Virus record (IMG/VR): IMGVR_UViG_2537561716_000021
Reading direction: 5' to 3' (one strand)
From: a virus
Taxonomy: Duplodnaviria > Heunggongvirae > Uroviricota > Caudoviricetes
DNA length: 6,480 nt
Part shown: positions 1 to 6,480 of the stretch, piece by piece
Numbering within the stretch: the stretch's first letter is position 1
Layout of the letters: each line of letters opens with the position of its first letter
Program-made: the position numbers and the translations under genes
Notes under the pieces: model-generated
Database searches by the model: none
The model's input: the letters and a program-made list of their open reading frames with translations, nothing else
Told to the model about the DNA's origin: nothing

Positions 1-42
1 ACCAAGCCTTTGATATATAAGTGTTTTCTCTGTTAAGCGTGA

Positions 43-97
43 GCTACGTGAAAAATAATTTTTAGTGGGTATATCTGTTCAAGAGATTTCACGTAGC
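43..97. repeat. 11-bp perfect inverted repeat GCTACGTGAAA / TTTCACGTAGC with 33-bp AT-rich spacer
   Basis: Arms at 43-53 and 87-97. Lies in the non-coding stretch downstream of the tape-measure gene. Confidence 0.8.
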
Positions 98-144
98 ATT
101 CGACTATTCATAGTTGAATCGTCATACTAGATAAAGATTAATAG

Positions 145-162
145 ATTGCCATGTGTGGCAAT
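145..162 (-). terminator. possible weak terminator hairpin downstream of the tape-measure gene
   Basis: ATTGCCA-tgtg-TGGCAAT, a 7-bp stem with 4-nt loop, 25 nt past the stop at 187. On the minus strand it is followed by a U-rich but interrupted tract (CUAUUAAUCUUUAUCU). Could equally be an operator palindrome. Confidence 0.25.
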
Positions 163-186
163 AAATATTAGTAGTTCTAACATTGT

Positions 187-2265
187 TTATTCCTCTGGGT
201 AAGCTGAGCTAATCAAGGTATCTTCCTGCATACGATTAATATGTGATGTTGTCCTTTCATCAATAACTTTCCCATCAAGTACCGTCTGAGTTGTGATATT
301 GATTGTCTGAGGCTGAATATTTACTGACGGCTTGATAAGCTTTAAATCTTGTGTGAATGTTTCCACTCGACCTTTCAGATTATTTAATGCTTCAGGTGAA
401 AACTGTGGAACATCTTTTGATTTGCCCTGAACCATAGCCCATAAAACAGTGGCTAAAGAGTTCATGTCACCAGTTAATGCTTGGTCTGTGGGTTCCACCT
501 TTGACCTTACAACTTTATCAATTGGATTATCTGACTTACTCATCTGACGTTCACAGAACGGTTTGACAATGGCATTAATCACATCAGTTGCCATACCGAC
601 AATCATTACTTTGGTAATTGCATCAGCTACAGATAGCCTACTTTTTCCACCTTCAACACTACCAGTAGAACGTGAATTGATTCTTCCTGCTGCTGTATTT
701 GCCACATTTCCAAGCGTGGAAATGGCCCTAATTAAGTTCCAGATACCACCTACAGCACCAATCCCAGACCTTACAGCGACTATACCAGCAAGCCCCTTTA
801 ATGCACTTAACAGGCCATTTGCAAGACCATCAGCTACAGCTTTTTGAGTGTCATTTAATTCTCTGTAAGCAAGGGTCACTCTGTCAAAGAATCCCTGCAC
901 TCGGTAGCTAATCGTGGTTAAGTCATCAATACCGTTTGACATGCTTTTCATCAGGTCGCCAAAATGTTCACCAAGATTTTTAGATTGACCACCCAGTGAA
1001 TTAAGTAAATTAGTCAGTGACCTTGTAAAGTCTGTTAAACCTTCCTGTGAACCGTCGAACATTAAGGCCAAATTATTATTCCATGAATTACTTAAGCGGC
1101 CTAACTGCGTCTGAGTAGAGTTAATAATCTTTTCCCATCCCCCAGCTTTAGCAATCATATTACCCATTTCAGCGGATACTTTAGGAAGAACATCTTTAGA
1201 AAGAACTTTACCGTTCTTCATAGCTGCATCTAATTGCTCGGTAGTCATCCCAAGACTTCTGGCAAATAACTGAAAAGCACCTGCCATTCTGTCCCCTAAC
1301 TGACCGCGTAATTCTTCAGCTTGAATCTTGCCCTTGCTCGCCATCTGCTCAAAAGCTTTTAAAATCCCGTTAATTTCATCGGTGCTTAAACCCATTAATC
1401 TGGATGTACCAATCACATTAGAAAATAAGGATTCTTTCTGGCCTGTATCCATATCACCAGCACCAGCGGAAAACTTAGCAAAACTGCTTAATGTTTCAAT
1501 CTGGTCAACACCAGTATTATTAGCAAGATTCTTAACAAATTCTGTAGCTCGTTTAGCACCTTCATCACCTAAAACGAATTGTGCCGCTCGTTGTGATGCT
1601 TCTTTTTTCAGACCAATCTCCATAATCTTCCTATAAGCTTCTAAGGCTGTCTGAAAACTATAAATGGCTGTACCTGCTTTGATTGCACTTGTAGCTAATA
1701 CATCCAGACCATTCGAAGCCTTTTCACTGTGATTGTTTTTGCTGGTGGTCTTGTTAAACTTAGAAAGTGTTTCACGTAGATTTTGATTTAACTTTGCTAA
1801 CTCACGATTAAAAGCTTCGTTTCCAAGTGTCTTGGATTTACTACTTAATGCGTAAAACTGACTCTTAATGTATTTCTCGACAATTGGGTTAAGACCTTTC
1901 AGCTTGGTCATATTCGCTGAATAAGCTGCTGTGATTGCTCTGTTGCCGCTAATTCGTGGCTGTCTTGATTGTTTTGGAGGATTAACAGTGTCATTAAATC
2001 TGGTGGCAAACTGAAATGCTTTTGTGCTTCTTGCTCTCTGTTCAATCTTGTCAAAGGCCTTATTAAACTTCCTTTCAAGCTGCCCTAAAGAAGCCGTTAA
2101 ATTGCTATCAAGCTGCTTTGTATTAATCCTGAAACCTTTATTTAGGTTCTTTTCAATTCTTTGTGCTGACTGCAAAGCTGCCTTTTCAACTCTTTGCAAG
2201 CCCTTAATAACGTTCTCGCTGAAGCCTAGCTCAACGATAAAACTATCAACTGTGAATTTGCTCAT
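187..2265 (-). CDS. phage tail tape measure protein (tape-measure domain family)
   Basis: 692-aa ORF from the track. ATG at 2265..2263 with GAGGTGA 9 nt upstream. Internal stretch KAFEQMASKGKIQAEELRGQLGDRMAGAFQLFARSLGMTTEQLDAAMKNGKV matches the conserved tape-measure domain motif as I recall it. Gly/Ala-rich hydrophobic segment GLANGLLSALKGLAGIVAVRSGIGAVGGIW and helical, K/E/Q-rich N-terminal third are typical of this family. Not verified by search. Confidence 0.75.
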   Translation of the reverse strand: MSKFTVDSFIVELGFSENVIKGLQRVEKAALQSAQRIEKNLNKGFRINTKQLDSNLTASLGQLERKFNKAFDKIEQRARSTKAFQFATRFNDTVNPPKQSRQPRISGNRAITAAYSANMTKLKGLNPIVEKYIKSQFYALSSKSKTLGNEAFNRELAKLNQNLRETLSKFNKTTSKNNHSEKASNGLDVLATSAIKAGTAIYSFQTALEAYRKIMEIGLKKEASQRAAQFVLGDEGAKRATEFVKNLANNTGVDQIETLSSFAKFSAGAGDMDTGQKESLFSNVIGTSRLMGLSTDEINGILKAFEQMASKGKIQAEELRGQLGDRMAGAFQLFARSLGMTTEQLDAAMKNGKVLSKDVLPKVSAEMGNMIAKAGGWEKIINSTQTQLGRLSNSWNNNLALMFDGSQEGLTDFTRSLTNLLNSLGGQSKNLGEHFGDLMKSMSNGIDDLTTISYRVQGFFDRVTLAYRELNDTQKAVADGLANGLLSALKGLAGIVAVRSGIGAVGGIWNLIRAISTLGNVANTAAGRINSRSTGSVEGGKSRLSVADAITKVMIVGMATDVINAIVKPFCERQMSKSDNPIDKVVRSKVEPTDQALTGDMNSLATVLWAMVQGKSKDVPQFSPEALNNLKGRVETFTQDLKLIKPSVNIQPQTINITTQTVLDGKVIDERTTSHINRMQEDTLISSAYPEE

Positions 2266-2277
2266 TCATATTTTTCA

Positions 2278-2317
2278 CCTCATAGACTTCGGATAGAAGG
2301 CTATCCTCATATACAAA
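2278..2317. repeat. ~36-bp hairpin-containing repeat, copy A (just upstream of the tape-measure gene start)
   Basis: ATAGACTTCGGATAGAAGGCTATCCTCATATA at 2282-2313 contains the hairpin GGATAG-aagg-CTATCC (2291-2306). Matches copy B with one mismatch in the loop, and flanking bases are also similar. Confidence 0.85.
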
Positions 2318-2357
2318 AAAGGAGAGTTACCCAGATTGCCATCCAGATAATCTCTCC
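2314..2357 (-). terminator. possible intrinsic terminator between the 72-aa gene and the tape-measure gene
   Basis: On the minus strand GGAGAG (2357..2352) and CTCTCC (2326..2321) form a 6-bp stem followed directly by TTTTTTG (2320..2314). The 25-nt loop is long for a classic terminator. Confidence 0.3.
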
Positions 2358-2373
2358 CGTAGATTTTTACTAA

Positions 2374-2592
2374 CTAACCAACAACTGATACCCAATGATA
2401 ATCACCATCTTCACGAATAATTCTTGAACCAACCGGAATACGGTCAATGCACCACGAAGGAATTTTGCGAATCTTTATTTTGCTGTTTGAGGTGACAGGC
2501 TGATGCTTACTCTTTACCGTTTTTGGTTTACGTGGTTGGTTTTTAAGTTTTTCACAAACTGCCTTGATAGTCTCTAAACGTTCTTCAAACAT
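2374..2592 (-). CDS. hypothetical small basic protein (72 aa)
   Basis: ORF from track. ATG preceded by AGAGGTGA. Starts 22 nt downstream of the 236-aa gene stop, so probably co-transcribed. Lys/Arg-rich N-terminal half. No recognisable motif. Confidence 0.5.
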   Translation of the reverse strand: MFEERLETIKAVCEKLKNQPRKPKTVKSKHQPVTSNSKIKIRKIPSWCIDRIPVGSRIIREDGDYHWVSVVG

Positions 2593-2614
2593 TAATCACC
2601 TCTTTAATTCATAA

Positions 2615-3325
2615 TCAAACAGCCTTGCTATACTTCTGAGAAATCTTCGTTAACTGCTCAATATCAGCCATTAAAGCAATCTTCTTCTGCGACTCATATT
2701 CACTAACAAGCTCTTTCATGCTATCAAGTTCTTTTCTAAGTTTTTGCTTTAACTTATCCAGTTTATCGGAGTAATGCTTAGTCAAATTAGCTTCAGCTAA
2801 CTGAAGAATCTCTTCATCTGTTTTACCAGTCATCAGAATAAATTGACCAGAACCCCTTAATGCTTGTCTGACATCAATTAACCGGAACCCTTCAGGGATA
2901 CTTTGAAGAACTTTAGGAACGTCTTCAATCGCTGTACCAAAACCATCATTAAAGTTTCCTTCATAATAGATAAACGGGTTTGACTTAATCTCGTAAGCAA
3001 TATCATATTCTGAAGGTTTCGAGGTTTCTTCGAAGTTCTTAACAGCATCGTAAGCAATATCAAGTCGAATACGTTGTTCTTTCAGCTGTGGGTAATATTT
3101 CTTTTCAAGCTCAAGTAATGCTTCACCCTTGCAAATATCAGGCATCTCTTGAGGTTCAGGAGCCACAAAGATGGTTGTTTTTGGTGACATCTTTAACTCT
3201 TGCTCAAGTGCAATTCTTTCATCGTGTTCTTTACGCTGAATAGCGATAGCTGGATGTTCAGTCTGTGGTGACCAGTCACCGAAGCTGTCAACCTTTTTAC
3301 CGTTAATATATAAATCGTTTGTCAT
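2615..3325 (-). CDS. hypothetical protein (236 aa) with Lys/Glu-rich, probably coiled-coil C-terminus
   Basis: Track ORF 2615..3370 begins at a GTG (3370..3368) with no ribosome-binding site. The internal ATG at 3325..3323 is preceded by GAAGAGGG at good spacing, so the start is trimmed to 3325. C-terminal ~60 residues (DKLDKLKQKLRKELDSMKELVSEYESQKK) look coiled-coil. No family recognised. Confidence 0.6.
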   Translation of the reverse strand: MTNDLYINGKKVDSFGDWSPQTEHPAIAIQRKEHDERIALEQELKMSPKTTIFVAPEPQEMPDICKGEALLELEKKYYPQLKEQRIRLDIAYDAVKNFEETSKPSEYDIAYEIKSNPFIYYEGNFNDGFGTAIEDVPKVLQSIPEGFRLIDVRQALRGSGQFILMTGKTDEEILQLAEANLTKHYSDKLDKLKQKLRKELDSMKELVSEYESQKKIALMADIEQLTKISQKYSKAV

Positions 3326-3347
3326 TGTTTTTCCCTCTTCTAAGTAA

Positions 3348-3437
3348 TATTCAGTTTTTAAAAAGCACACCTGACAGCCTACGAACTTAGAAGAGACTTA
3401 AAAGCGTTTGCCAAGTGTGCTTTTTAAAAACTGAATA
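3348..3437. repeat. perfect 23-bp inverted repeat (TATTCAGTTTTTAAAAAGCACAC) with 44-bp spacer
   Basis: Arms at 3348-3370 and 3415-3437 are exact reverse complements. Each arm contains TTTTTAAAAA. The left arm ends 22 nt upstream of the ATG at 3325 (minus-strand sense). Confidence 0.9.
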
Positions 3438-3530
3438 GCCCTAGATAATTTCTTATAAAGGGCCATTCATAAGGTGAAGAAATTAAAAGAACATCTAAAG
3501 GATTCAAATGAATGAACAAAGATTTTTGAT

Positions 3531-3562: not shown

Positions 3563-3643
3563 GACGAAAAGCATTGCACCTTTCAGAATAACTATCCCTA
3601 GATGTAGATGGAATTGTTGAAAGAAATAAGAGAGAATTGCTCT

Positions 3644-3685
3644 CCCTATAGACTTCGGATAGAAGACTATCCTCATATATACAAT
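3644..3685. repeat. ~36-bp hairpin-containing repeat, copy B (in the long intergenic region)
   Basis: ATAGACTTCGGATAGAAGACTATCCTCATATA at 3648-3679 with hairpin GGATAG-aaga-CTATCC (3657-3672). Immediately preceded by the small hairpin GAGAG-aattg-CTCTC. Confidence 0.85.
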
Positions 3686-3736
3686 TATGTCATGCTCAAG
3701 GTTATTTGTCAACAGCTTTTTAACAGATTGGTAACA

Positions 3737-3814
3737 TCAATTCTTATTTACCGTATTACCTACCCAGCAACCAACCAATAAGCCAAGCAACGTCCAAGCA
3801 ATTATTAAACCCAT
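3737..3814 (-). CDS. possible 25-aa hydrophobic peptide (MGLIIAWTLLGLLVGCWVGNTVNKN), speculative
   Basis: ATG at 3814..3812 overlaps the TAA stop of the 109-aa gene (TAATG coupling). Hydrophobic stretch ends in a lipobox-like L-V-G-C. Below the track length threshold, and the N-region has no positive charge. Confidence 0.2.
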   Translation of the reverse strand: MGLIIAWTLLGLLVGCWVGNTVNKN

Positions 3815-4143
3815 TAGTGAATCCTCATAGAATCCGCAACCAAAACATTGTCAGCGTACAAAATTGTCACAGCACCTTTCAGAAATTGCTCTGGGCTGAC
3901 ACTAAGTTTGTTTGTCTGTTCGATAATCAATCTTTTCATGTTGCTGTCTTTAATTGGTAGCATCATTCGAGGCTCGTTAAACTCCACCGACTGAATAAAG
4001 TCAGAGATGTTTTCTGCATTATCAGCCATCAAAGCTAACAGCCGGTCAAAGTCAATGCTAATACCTGCATCAGTGAAGTGTTGAAGCATGGTCACTGTGT
4101 CGATATCAAGCATAATTTGTAATGGGAAGTTTAATTCTCTCAT
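3814..4143 (-). CDS. hypothetical acidic protein (109 aa)
   Basis: ORF from track. ATG at 4143 with AAGGAG upstream. Lies immediately downstream (minus-strand sense) of repeat copy 1. No motif recognised. Confidence 0.55.
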   Translation of the reverse strand: MRELNFPLQIMLDIDTVTMLQHFTDAGISIDFDRLLALMADNAENISDFIQSVEFNEPRMMLPIKDSNMKRLIIEQTNKLSVSPEQFLKGAVTILYADNVLVADSMRIH

Positions 4144-4173
4144 TTCTTAAAATCTCCTTTTTACCAGACCTCC

Positions 4174-4291
4174 TCAATCGCTCTGTAACGAGCTAAACAG
4201 TCTTTTTCAGGGGTAGCCTGTACAGTGGTATTACCCACCCTAAAATAGGGTAGTTTTTTGCGTTAGAATGCGATTGAGAGCGTCTGAGAAG
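4174..4291. repeat. bipartite intergenic repeat, copy 1
   Basis: Left flank TCAATCGCTCTGTAACGAG (4174-4192) and right flank AGAATGCGATTGAGAGCGTCT (4265-4285) are identical to copy 2. The 72-nt core is divergent and holds the hairpin ACCCTA-aaa-TAGGGT (4237-4251) followed by T6 (4254-4259). Confidence 0.85.
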
Positions 4292-4299
4292 CTGTTTTT

Positions 4300-4587
4300 C
4301 TAATTTCGCTTAAAGTCTCGGACTTGCATAAGGTTTTTTGGTCTGGTATCGGCTCTGTTACCATTTCGATGGATAATTTGCTTATTGGATTGATAGCCAT
4401 GATAAAGGAACCAGACAACATATTTCACATAGAATGTGTATCGACCTATATTAAATGTTTTGTTGCCGTAGTCGTCGGTATTTATCGTGACTGACTCCCC
4501 ATCAGACCAGCACAGGGAATCACTGGATTCATCATAGATAAGGTGTTCTGCAAAATATCTTCTAACATCTTCATGCCAAGGTTTCAT
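4300..4587 (-). CDS. HNH endonuclease (HNH_3 / homing-endonuclease-like, 95 aa)
   Basis: C-terminal IIHRNGNRADTRPKNLMQV fits the H-x-x-G-x-x-x-D-x-x-x-x-N-L HNH core. Preceding aromatic-rich block (YTFYVKYVVWFLYHGY) resembles the region upstream of the HNH motif in small phage HNH proteins. Strong GAGGAGG site. ATGA start/stop overlap with the upstream gene. Confidence 0.7.
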   Translation of the reverse strand: MKPWHEDVRRYFAEHLIYDESSDSLCWSDGESVTINTDDYGNKTFNIGRYTFYVKYVVWFLYHGYQSNKQIIHRNGNRADTRPKNLMQVRDFKRN

Positions 4588-4799
4588 AAAACCTCCTCAC
4601 CCCAATAACCTAATTCAATCTTATGACGTTCAAACCATTCCGGTTTAACTGCTGTTTTCAGTGTTTCATTTGGGCCAATGGCTTTAATGAAAATATCTTT
4701 TGAGTTATGGATGTCACCGAATCCGTTTCCTTTAATCAGGAGGTCGGAGATGTAGCGAATCATTTTATCTGTGTGGTATTCAAAGGTAATGCATAGCAT
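4584..4799 (-). CDS. hypothetical protein (71 aa)
   Basis: ORF from track. ATG overlaps the stop of the 93-aa gene (TAATG) and its own stop overlaps the HNH start (ATGA), i.e. translationally coupled. No motif recognised. Confidence 0.5.
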   Translation of the reverse strand: MLCITFEYHTDKMIRYISDLLIKGNGFGDIHNSKDIFIKAIGPNETLKTAVKPEWFERHKIELGYWGEEVL

Positions 4800-5080
4800 T
4801 AAACCCCCATCGATAGCTTGTGAATCTTGATGCTCAATAGCCGGGCAATATCAATTTTAAAGTTGTTCAGTTCCTTCAGAGTAGCTAGAGCGTTCTGAGT
4901 AATTCTGATGTGTCTGCGACCTTTAGAAACTGGATATTTCAGTAAATCCGACTCAGTGACCTCTTTAGCAATTGCAAGCTGCATAATGGTTTGATGAGGC
5001 AGGTTAGTTGTCTGTTTAATTCGGGTAAGCTCGTGAAAGGCTTCTTCTGAAATACGGGTTAATGTGTGTTTGTTTTTCAT
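4799..5080 (-). CDS. hypothetical protein (93 aa), possibly a small DNA-binding regulator
   Basis: Track ORF 4799..5164 overlaps the 184-aa gene by 83 nt. The internal ATG at 5080..5078 has GAGGA about 8 nt upstream and sits 1 nt after the 184-aa stop (TAAAATG), so the start is trimmed. Function is a guess. Confidence 0.5.
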   Translation of the reverse strand: MKNKHTLTRISEEAFHELTRIKQTTNLPHQTIMQLAIAKEVTESDLLKYPVSKGRRHIRITQNALATLKELNNFKIDIARLLSIKIHKLSMGV

Positions 5081-5081
5081 T

Positions 5082-5636
5082 TTAAAATTCCTCTGCTTGT
5101 GCGTATACGTCAAATTCAAAGTCTGGTTCACTGGTCGTAAGGCTAATATTGCCCACTTCCACATGATGATTGATTGTCTCGATAACTTTCATGCAAATGG
5201 TAGTTAAATTAGCGCAATATTTATCAGATGGTAGCTCGTAGCTAAGTCTGGTTGCTTGACGCTGTAGATAATTTGTTATTGTGCTTGAGCTAATCTTGTC
5301 AATATTTCGTAGTAAATAGAAAACTTTTTGGTGATAATTATCCCTTCCAAAACTGCGACAAGTACCGATAATTGCATCTTCAATTTTTGATGGTAATTGC
5401 TTGTAGCTGTCAAAACTCATCAAGAAAGGTTTCAAGTTATTCTTCGTTGTTTTGCGTACTGGCATAAATCTGTCTCGTGGCGTAATGCTACGAATGACCG
5501 CTTCAATGTTTTTACGTTCGGATTTGGTAAAGGCTGGGACTTCGTAGCTGGTGGGGTTGTTTGTGTAGCTGTAACCGTTGTGTCTGTTGCGTCTCTTGGA
5601 TTCTTCAAGAAACTTTTGAAATTCTCTGTCGTTCAT
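5082..5636 (-). CDS. hypothetical protein (184 aa), first gene of the HNH operon
   Basis: ORF from track. ATG at 5636. Preceded by a candidate sigma70-like promoter on the minus strand. No family recognised. Confidence 0.6.
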   Translation of the reverse strand: MNDREFQKFLEESKRRNRHNGYSYTNNPTSYEVPAFTKSERKNIEAVIRSITPRDRFMPVRKTTKNNLKPFLMSFDSYKQLPSKIEDAIIGTCRSFGRDNYHQKVFYLLRNIDKISSSTITNYLQRQATRLSYELPSDKYCANLTTICMKVIETINHHVEVGNISLTTSEPDFEFDVYAQAEEF

Positions 5637-5686: not shown

Positions 5687-5715
5687 ATCCTAGCATTTTC
5701 AAAGGCTAATGTCAA
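5687..5715 (-). promoter_or_regulatory. candidate sigma70-type promoter for the 184/93/71/HNH operon
   Basis: Minus-strand TTGACA (5715..5710), 17-nt spacer, TAGGAT (5692..5687), about 50 nt upstream of the ATG at 5636. The -10 is weak. Confidence 0.4.
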
Positions 5716-5722
5716 GTATTTT

Positions 5723-5752
5723 TTAACATTTTATTAACATCTGTGGTATAAT
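5723..5752 (+). promoter_or_regulatory. candidate rightward promoter with extended -10 (TTAACA, 18 nt, TGgTATAAT)
   Basis: TTAACA at 5723-5728. TG at 5744-5745 followed by TATAAT at 5747-5752. Divergent from the operon promoter. Would transcribe repeat copy 2 and the small ORF at 5934. Confidence 0.5.
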
Positions 5753-5830
5753 GGGTTTATGGGGAGAGTAAAATATAAAGGCGTGGCCATGTATTTGGTC
5801 ACATGGTTATTGCATTGCACACAGACATCT

Positions 5831-5925
5831 TCAATCGCTCTGTAACGAGTTAAATGGCCTCTTCAGGTCAACTATAAGGTCAGGTACTTTTTTGTGTCAG
5901 AATGCGATTGAGAGCGTCTTACAAG
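5831..5925. repeat. bipartite intergenic repeat, copy 2
   Basis: Left flank 5831-5849 and right flank 5899-5919 are identical to copy 1. The 49-nt core is different but also ends in T6 (5888-5893). Confidence 0.85.
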
Positions 5926-5933
5926 GAAAACTA

Positions 5934-6110
5934 ATGGTAAATCTCCCTCAGGAATTGGGGTCACCTGATGTGTGGGCTGGTGGAGGTATTGGACTTATTG
6001 CAGGTCTGCTACTTCGCTACGTCCTCGTCAGGGTGCTTGTTGTCTTTAAACTGTTCGGTCGTACATGGACGCTTGACCTTAAGGATAACGACCATACAGA
6101 CCCCCGTTAA
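5934..6110 (+). CDS. possible small membrane protein (58 aa: MVNLPQELGSPDVWAGGGIGLIAGLLLRYVLVRVLVVFKLFGRTWTLDLKDNDHTDPR)
   Basis: Track ORF 5892..6110 begins with TTG. The ATG at 5934 has AAGGA 7 nt upstream. One clear hydrophobic helix (GIGLIAGLLLRYVLVRVLVVF). Lies in a GC-richer ~200-bp stretch between the AT-rich block and the IS end. Confidence 0.35.
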   Translation: MVNLPQELGSPDVWAGGGIGLIAGLLLRYVLVRVLVVFKLFGRTWTLDLKDNDHTDPR

Positions 6111-6142
6111 AATCCCTCCAAAACCCCCTGTACGAGATGGTA

Positions 6143-6480
6143 TGAACCGCCCCGGGTTTCCTGGAGAGTGTTTTATCTGTGAACTCAGGCTGCCAGATCA
6201 TCGTTTCCGATGGAAGCATAATAAGCTTTTTCTGCTTCTGCCGGAGGAGTATGGCCCAGCCTTCCCAGCAATCGTCGATTGTTATCCCAGTCCACCCACG
6301 TTAGTGTGGCCAGTTCCACTTCTGCCGGTTTTTCCAGCTCTTACGGTGTATTACCTCCGCTTTGTAAAGACCATTGATGCTCTCGCCATCGCGTTGTCAC
6401 GAGTCGCCTGTACTCCCTGTTGATGCCAGTAATCCGGCTTCTTTTAGTCGCTCCGTATAGGCCAGTGACACATACTGAGA
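6143..6480 (-). mobile_element. IS3-family insertion sequence, terminal part (IS629/IS1203-like as recalled), continuing past the window edge
   Basis: Terminal sequence TGAACCGCCCCGGGTTTCCTGGAGAG starts at 6143 and matches the IS629-group terminal inverted repeat as I remember it. Minus-strand translation from the window edge reads SQYVSLAYTERLKEAGLLASTGSTGDS and later ESINGLYKAEVIHRKSWKNR and AEVELATLTWVDW...GHTPPAEAEKAYYASIGNDDLAA, a DDE transposase OrfB C-terminus. Composition is visibly GC-richer than the rest. Confidence 0.7.
6185..6480 (-). pseudogene. IS3-family transposase OrfB, C-terminal portion, disrupted
   Basis: In the frame that encodes SQYVSLAYTERLKEAGLLASTGSTGDS there is an in-frame TGA at 6399..6397, exactly where the conserved YDNA motif should be. 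The conserved C-terminal tail is then in a different frame (shift near 6322-6327) and ends at TGA 6187..6185. Hand-translated. Confidence 0.5.

Follow-up and report, generated by a model that had tools for sequence, protein, structure and literature searches.

The PLEs of Vibrio cholerae are islands with a serine recombinase that live as parasites of ICP1, a virulent myovirus (Mathur, Boyd et al., Nature 2026; PMC12987554). They have genes of their own for a tail assembly chaperone (TAC), a tape measure protein (TMP) and the hub protein BhuB; identity to the ICP1 counterparts is 20% for each of the first two and 41% for BhuB, and the PLE chimeric tails are 10 nm shorter, which was described as the first such case (PMC12987554). 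Surveys of the SatelliteFinder type have reported PLEs in V. cholerae only. We describe here a locus of the Escherichia coli O157:H7 chromosome whose gene content recalls that of the PLEs. It was analysed from a stretch of 6,480 nucleotides (IMG/VR record IMGVR_UViG_2537561716_000021, hereafter the window), in which every gene lies on the minus strand and which covers part of an integrative island. The only tail genes of this island code for a TMP and for a tube initiator (TI), and both are homologues, in conserved order, of the adjacent TMP and TI genes of virulent Felix O1-type myoviruses. Our comparative analysis suggests, with a probability of about one half, that the island is a PLE-like parasite of these phages supplying its own TMP and TI.

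Felix O1-type phages are classic typing phages of Salmonella and are common in the cocktails used for biocontrol and therapy against E. coli and Salmonella. Felix O1 itself is a strictly virulent myovirus of 86 kb in which the genes for the sheath, the tube and two TACs precede the TMP gene, and hub and wedge genes follow it. The product of the gene next after the TMP gene was identified as the tube initiator by cryo-electron microscopy of phage Bas63 (PMC12609058). In the Bas63 TI, a tube-like N-domain is followed by a C-terminal extension running through the baseplate, and the last 25 residues of the TMP touch the hub and the puncturing apparatus (PMC12609058).

Tape measure and tube initiator genes

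The window features that surround the TMP gene are the following:

1..186, minus strand: non-coding spacer between the TMP and TI genes, with palindromes, among them ATTGCCA-CACA-TGGCAAT; RNA fold of -20.6 kcal/mol, z -2.9
187..2265, minus strand: TMP gene, 692 residues, island-type allele; PF20155, TIGR02675, phrog_4036
2266..2373, minus strand: spacer of 108 nucleotides between the p72 and TMP genes, with an intrinsic terminator (stem at about 2357-2320, then U6), the hairpin GGATAG-CCTT-CTATCC, the Shine-Dalgarno sequence GAGGTG and the TMP ATG
2374..2592, minus strand: p72, a small basic protein of 72 residues with an isoelectric point (pI) of 9.95, hypervariable among island variants
2615..3325, minus strand: p236, an acidic protein of 236 residues made mainly of long helices, with the same ATG start as in RefSeq

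Judged by its profile matches, the open reading frame (ORF) at 187-2265 is a genuine TMP gene, as an earlier note made from the sequence alone had proposed. Its product matches PF20155 (TMP_3) at 1.5e-18 with 67.7 bits (cut-off 41), TIGR02675 at 1.4e-15 with 57.3 bits (cut-off 21.35) and phrog_4036 at 1e-97. The next gene is Dit-like and codes for the TI, a protein of 257 residues that matches PF21821 (Dit_like) at 4.7e-20. Its ATG lies 48 nucleotides left of window position 1, i.e. 234 nucleotides past the TMP stop codon. Since a Dit-like gene stands directly after the TMP gene, the order from TMP to distal tail is canonical, and the view of the downstream side as non-canonical has to be given up; a tail gene in this place was one of the findings that the earlier note itself had named as refuting its proposal. 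The same is true of the remark that the TMP is short, 692 residues being ordinary for a myovirus tail of about 105 nm. The description of positions 1-186 as non-coding DNA with palindromes agrees with both the sequence and the RNA fold. This spacer contains a conserved cassette at about 32-98, GCTACGTGAAA-N33-TTTCACGTAGC then TCACGCTTAACAGAG. The palindromic cassette, of about 70 nucleotides, was found 5' of the TI gene in all five variants aligned, Citrobacter included, with a second copy 5' of the TMP gene in one E. coli variant (L006); it is not present in Felix O1.

Relationship with Felix O1-type phages

The TI is 81% identical in amino acids to ORF68 of Felix O1, the product of the gene right after the Felix O1 TMP gene, and the DNA is 92% identical across 558 nucleotides. 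The N-domain (residues 6-185) reaches about 97% identity to ORF68 and the last 70 residues or so about 40%. In the first 90 codons or so, the synonymous divergence (dS) from the phage is only 0-0.19. The synonymous sites of the TMP gene are, by contrast, saturated relative to the phage, and the low value in the TI gene points to a recent exchange with phage DNA. The phage records matching the TI (n=299) all belong, as judged from their organism names, to Felix O1-type phages or to related phages of Erwinia, Pectobacterium and Hafnia. The genera that host the island, Escherichia, Shigella, Salmonella and Citrobacter, fall among the hosts of the matching phages.

Aligned end to end with the 742-residue Felixounavirus TMPs, the island TMP is about 29% identical and 50 residues shorter. 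Identity to these TMPs rises to 73-76% over residues 1-45 and to 87% in the core at about 300-330, and 10 of the 13 residues of the C-terminal tip QEDxLxSSxYPEE are the same. No TMP more than 60% identical was found in any phage record searched. The length of the island TMPs is consistently 682-692 residues, i.e. 50-60 below the Felix O1 TMP. The interface parts seen in the Bas63 structure, namely the N-domain of the TI and the tip of the TMP, are the parts conserved in the island proteins.

The Felixounavirus module (ORF65/66 for the TACs, ORF67 for the TMP and ORF68 for the TI in Felix O1; gp17/gp18 in Bas63) and the island pair are alike in the order TMP then TI, in the conserved TI N-domain, TMP N-terminus, TMP_3 core and TMP C-terminal tip, and in the presence of a terminator upstream of the module. 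They differ in that the TMP and TI genes overlap in the phage and are separated by a spacer in the island, which moreover has no TAC, sheath, tube, hub or wedge gene; in addition, the island TMP is about 70% diverged and the last 70 residues or so of the TI are island-specific. A search of the whole Felix O1 genome with the other island genes by tblastn and blastn extended the matches beyond the TMP and the TI to HNH endonucleases only. The island HNH protein (95 residues) is 30% identical to the HNH protein ORF95 of Felix O1.

As a side observation, the phage terminator-like hairpin, GGGGGAGAC...GTCTTCCCC then T6, lies between the tube gene and the TAC-TMP block (L002 9039-9111; Felix O1 41168-41240). 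Its position is equivalent to that of the island terminator before the TMP gene.

Integration, distribution and selection

The two halves of yecE flank the island in O157, the 5' half beyond the recombinase gene and the 3' half about 12 kb to the other side. The island measures about 12 kb, or 13.5 kb with the insertion sequence (IS) IS629, and 11-13.5 kb across copies. The listed length of SpLE2 in O157 strain Sakai is 13,459 bp. About 12 kb plus the 1.3 kb of IS629 gives this length, and the map position also agrees, so that the locus matches SpLE2 in size and position. The gene next after the TI gene codes for a large serine recombinase of 507 residues with the Pfam domains Resolvase, Recombinase and Zn_ribbon_recom. 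From this end, the gene order is recombinase, TI, TMP, p72, p236, p109, HNH, p71, p93 and p184, with the genes from p184 to TI transcribed towards the recombinase gene; p184 is preceded by about 1.3 kb of conserved non-coding DNA and then by a variable end. The IS-free copy of O157 strain 06-3462 (L001) served as the reference for the context outside the window.

The core gene order is shared by 13 copies at two integration sites. Copies with this order are found at yecE in E. coli (L006, L010, L011) and at a wrbA-proximal site in E. coli and in a genome labelled Salmonella (L005 and L022), where the Salmonella-labelled copy has a recombinase of 547 residues. Further copies come from Escherichia albertii (L007, L009), from Citrobacter (L008) and from eight IMG/VR contigs. 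The recombinase gene is next to the TI gene in every copy that reaches that far. Of 5426 complete E. coli genomes, 468 have relatives of the TMP, all of these being chromosomal, with up to three in one genome.

The 13 copies (O157 and 12 others) were screened with the sheath, tube, chaperone, hub and spike proteins of Felix O1 or read from gene and Pfam tables, and no sheath, tube, hub, wedge, fibre or other tail gene was found in them. This rules out the tailocin-type arrangement that the earlier note had envisaged. Its impression of an unusual neighbourhood was nonetheless well founded, in that the island has two tail genes only and the genes upstream of them are not recognisable TAC genes.

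Selection was assessed in three E. coli variants by the ratio of nonsynonymous to synonymous divergence (dN/dS), which is 0.02-0.39 for 10 of 10 genes. For the TMP gene it is 0.14-0.23, with 62-81 synonymous changes. The alleles found in island variants are 44-95% identical for the TMP and 64-95% for the TI, and both genes are mosaic, relative to Felix O1-type phages as well as among island variants. Hence, of the two terms in the proposal of a mosaic or remnant tail module, the first is retained and the second is contradicted by the synteny across genera and by the purifying selection on every gene. Such shuffled allele classes are, as far as the sequences tell, what a functional element that recombines under conflict-type selection would show, and not one in decay.

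Several copies contain IS elements. An IS100 lies in the recombinase gene of one copy (L005) and another in the non-coding region of a second (L010), an IS21 interrupts the TMP gene of the Citrobacter copy (L008) and an IS1203 the TMP gene of strain Vac_07.1.

Genes upstream of the TMP gene

The genes for p236 and p72 occupy the position where TAC genes precede the TMP gene in Felix O1. They were correctly described as not overlapping, with the p72 frame closed before its ATG: the two ORFs are separate and in different frames, and a TGA stands two codons ahead of the p72 ATG. This excludes a frameshift arrangement of the G/GT type. The profile check of both proteins for tail chaperones, which had been recommended, recognised none: neither p236 nor p72 has a match in Pfam, PHROGs, NCBIfam, PADLOC or the PDB, the latter by sequence or profile. 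No likeness of the island to the Felix O1 TACs was detected by tblastn. Models made with AlphaFold2 (AF2) show a helix, a basic linker and a small beta domain for p72 (pLDDT 77.6) and long helices for p236 (pLDDT 67). Foldseek searches with these models, against the PDB for both proteins and also against BFVD for p72, gave no significant match and coiled-coil noise only. Among 1.84 billion representatives searched exhaustively with HMMER, the p236 family amounts to 18 clusters at 50% identity; the p72 family is made of 27 clusters only. On the sequence and model evidence, neither protein is a recognisable TAC and p72 is not TAC-like; a divergent functional analogue of a TAC is at most conceivable.

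Both genes are variable. Amino acid identity between the p72 proteins of different variants is 51-55%, against more than 90% for the genes on either side, and p236 exists as two allele classes in one slot with only about 24% identity between them. Diversity has a hot spot in the slot from p236 to the TMP gene, yet the p72 of O157 is 90% identical to that of Citrobacter; strain EC19 has an extra ORF of 102 residues there (L010 8305-8613). Many homologues of p236 are named 'transposase' in RefSeq/PGAP. Since no transposase family or fold is detectable in p236, this name appears to be a propagated mis-annotation.

The earlier note was also right about a terminator-like hairpin and a repeat ahead of the TMP gene. 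The hairpin has a 17-bp stem followed by U6 and folds at -29.7 kcal/mol (z -2.4). Its stem is kept in all four variants aligned, O157, L005, L006 and Citrobacter L008. The repeat consists of 49 nucleotides of the TMP leader (2270-2318) that are 84% identical to 3636-3684, and it is present in the O157 island only, out of four variants whose TMP leaders were aligned.

Other genes and non-coding DNA of the island

The remaining features of the window are the following:

3348..3437, minus strand: long hairpin with arms of 29 nucleotides, 93% complementary, directly 5' of the p236 Shine-Dalgarno sequence
3629..3712, minus strand: sigma70-like promoter TTGACA-17-CATAAT (11/12), copy of the TMP-leader hairpin and terminator-like hairpin
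3814..4143, minus strand: p109, acidic, pI 4.6, no family match; dN/dS 0.25-0.39
4300..4587, minus strand: HNH endonuclease, 95 residues; PF13392 at 1.8e-8
4584..5636, minus strand: operon p184-p93-p71 (5082-5636, 4799-5080 and 4584-4799); dN/dS 0.10-0.29
5687..6142, minus strand: promoter-like TTGACA-17-TAGGAT (5715-5687), inverted-repeat element of about 125 nucleotides (5822-5925) and start of the conserved non-coding DNA of about 1.3 kb
6143..6480, no strand assigned: end of an IS629/IS1203 element (IS3 family) that sits in the conserved non-coding region, foreign to the island proper and lacking from strain 06-3462 (L001)

The HNH endonuclease is the best-conserved island gene, with 98-99% amino acid identity among variants and a dN/dS of 0.02-0.08. 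Scans of Pfam, PHROG, NCBIfam and PADLOC gave no confident family match for p184, p93, p71, p109, p236 or p72. The p184 family occurs in E. coli, Shigella, Salmonella, Escherichia fergusonii and Citrobacter. A weak match of p93 to the N-terminal part of DndE (E 0.0011) makes it possibly a ribbon-helix-helix DNA binder. In a PADLOC 2.0 scan of the island proteins, the only match was a marginal one of 14.8 bits, between p93 and PDC-S26. At its variable end, the O157 island codes for an AP2-HNH homing-type endonuclease (L001 27109-27633) that is 47% identical to Felix O1 ORF95, a second sign of gene flow with the Felix O1 phage group. In other variants, the variable end has a Dam-type methyltransferase and a small resolvase instead.

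The hairpin before p236 is 84-93% conserved over most of its length in eight other variants, some of which have a divergent p236 allele. Within about 55 nucleotides of the strong TTGACA-17-CATAAT promoter stands a terminator-like hairpin, from which a short transcript is predicted. This transcript would share 32 nucleotides, UAUAUGAGGAUAGYCUUCUAUCCGAAGUCUAU, in the same sense, with the 5' leader of the TMP gene, and might act as a small RNA or as a decoy leader. The element of about 125 nucleotides, with imperfect inverted arms of 26 nucleotides, exists in two copies that are 83-88% identical and differ in their loops, one 5' of p109 (4165-4286) and the other 5' of the p184 promoter (5822-5925).

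The non-coding region of about 1.3 kb is 75% identical to the Citrobacter copy and about 91% to other E. coli copies. No convincing iterons or tandem repeats were detected in it, and a plus-strand ORF of 108 residues was rejected as a gene since no intact ORF of at least 60 residues exists at the matching place in Citrobacter. About 1 kb of this DNA is flanked by a perfect inverted repeat of 16 nucleotides, TCAGGTCAACTATAAG (L001 25863-25878 and 26887-26902; the first arm is at window 5863-5878). Such a repeat is expected by chance at about 3e-4, and the pair was found only in L001 and L011 of the loci searched. Some island variants have a small Hin-like resolvase nearby, and an invertible switch is conceivable. 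An Rfam scan of the island returned nothing at E<=1.

Proposed role of the island and alternative readings

It is quite probable that the TMP and TI have a function and affect the tail assembly of Felixounavirus phages in one way or another. If the island is a PLE-like parasite, its TMP and TI would join the phage tail-initiation complex, formed of the hub, the TI hexamer and the TMP, during infection. The tube-like N-domain of the TI, the N-terminus of the TMP and its hub-contacting tip would have been kept compatible with the phage, and the rest of the TMP and the baseplate-spanning C-terminal extension of the TI would be island-specific. The tail length per TMP residue is about 0.15 nm, a value also given in the paper on the PLEs, so 50 fewer residues would be expected to make a tail about 7 nm shorter. 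This would yield chimeric tails, shortened by that much, for the island's own use, and/or dead-end assemblies preventing the formation of phage progeny. How much is expressed, or when, would be set by the terminator ahead of the TMP gene and by the hairpins ahead of p236, TMP and TI, and the hypervariable p72 would be a candidate arms-race factor. The sequence is compatible with a role of the pair that may be island transfer, phage inhibition or both. A more specific proposal remains tentative and somewhat doubtful, namely that the island represents an undescribed Enterobacterial satellite family replacing the phage TMP and TI for its own chimeric, slightly shorter tails, with p72 as an Rta-like inhibitor of phage tail proteins. 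Our literature searches revealed no publication in which SpLE2, yecE islands or Felix O1 are connected with a satellite.

Several observations weigh against the parasite reading. For seven island proteins no family could be detected. The island has no identifiable replication initiator, terminase small subunit, pac or cos site or capsid-remodelling gene, and no TAC was found on it, whereas PLEs carry one. Comparison with Felix O1 revealed neither its promoter-like motifs nor any other common non-coding motif in the island. IS elements have disrupted some copies, as in the O157 window, in the Citrobacter TMP gene and in strain Vac_07.1. Finally, the saturation of synonymous sites between island and phage TMP genes means that the capture of the TMP gene is old, so its compatibility with present phages is something that we infer.

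The alternative that survives best, unlikely as it seems, is a pure anti-phage defence island without self-transfer, whose divergent TMP and TI would be dominant-negative subunits that nucleate or cap Felix O1-type tubes unproductively and so protect the population. Conserved interfaces with diverged interiors in both proteins are what it calls for, no packaging or replication gene was found by the Pfam, PHROG and NCBIfam scans, and the allelic diversity and mosaicism of p72, p236 and TMP are as expected in an arms race. Interference with tail assembly is also an established strategy, used by the Tai systems (PMC11364771) and by Rta of PLE11. The known tail-interference proteins are however small inhibitors and not full-length structural homologues, and PADLOC gave no defence-system match. 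Furthermore, the constant TMP length suggests that a tail is still measured, and the recombinase together with the spread across genera shows that the island moves by some route.

The TMP and TI could also serve otherwise, in superinfection exclusion at DNA entry or as decoys or triggers of a sensor that another island gene would encode, which we hold improbable. TMPs interact with inner-membrane entry factors at the DNA-entry step, effector candidates exist among p184, p236, p109 and p306, and an HNH nuclease is the best-conserved gene. Nevertheless, no TI role outside the baseplate is known, and the phage gene order and interfaces are kept in the pair. There is equally little chance that the island is a cryptic remnant, be it of a larger temperate phage or of an uptake of phage DNA by illegitimate recombination, with TMP and TI as passengers without a present role: SpLE2 is listed in catalogues only as a 'prophage-like element', several copies have IS insertions and most island genes have no assignable function, but purifying selection acts on all genes, including intact TMP ORFs of 2 kb, the order differs neither between the two att sites nor between E. 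coli, E. albertii, Salmonella and Citrobacter, no examined copy keeps a further head or tail gene, Felixounaviruses are virulent without known temperate relatives in the phage collection searched, and the 5' part of the TI gene was recently exchanged with phage DNA.

If the parasite reading is correct, a widespread island hijacking or blocking tail assembly would be an unrecognised determinant of sensitivity to Felix O1-type phages in O157 and other strains. It would be the first satellite known for this phage group, with TMP relatives in about 9% of the complete E. coli genomes, and would provide a function for SpLE2, a 25-year-old 'prophage-like element' of O157 Sakai. The chimeric-tail strategy would then be present in genetically tractable hosts, and the Bas63 virion structure allows conserved and island-specific interfaces to be mapped.

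Comparison with known systems

PICIs, cf-PICIs and P4-like satellites of Enterobacteria resemble the island in size range, integration, hosts and mosaic variable regions. They differ from it in carrying a tyrosine integrase, AlpA, a primase or Rep, and Rpp/TerS, Sid/Psu/Delta or capsid genes, and no Pfam, PHROG or NCBIfam match to the PICI, cf-PICI or P4 marker genes was obtained with any island protein. Their helpers are also temperate, in contrast with the virulent phages related to the island. The Tai systems (PMC11364771) and Rta of PLE11 are similar in that tail assembly is the likely target and in that they are carried on mobile islands. Their products are small inhibitors, whereas the cargo of the island consists of full-length structural homologues.

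The comparison with the PLEs is one of gene content; no sequence relationship to PLE genes is evident, though no test for one was made. The island is smaller (11-13.5 kb, against about 18 kb for PLEs) and resides in Enterobacteriaceae. No TAC, RepA, TerS or capsid-remodelling gene was identified on it, its second protein is a Dit-like TI where PLEs have BhuB, and this TI is far closer to the phage protein, with 81% identity and stretches of nearly identical DNA. In common, each is a small island of the host chromosome that has a large serine recombinase, and the phage related to each is a strictly virulent myovirus. Both lack the remaining tail genes and carry a TMP of their own that is shorter than the phage's and 20-30% identical to it, together with one hub-proximal baseplate protein that is closer to its phage counterpart. 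If the island indeed parasitises Felix O1-type phages by building such tails, it would be a second, independently evolved case of chimeric tails made by a satellite, and the strategy of the PLEs would not be a one-off.

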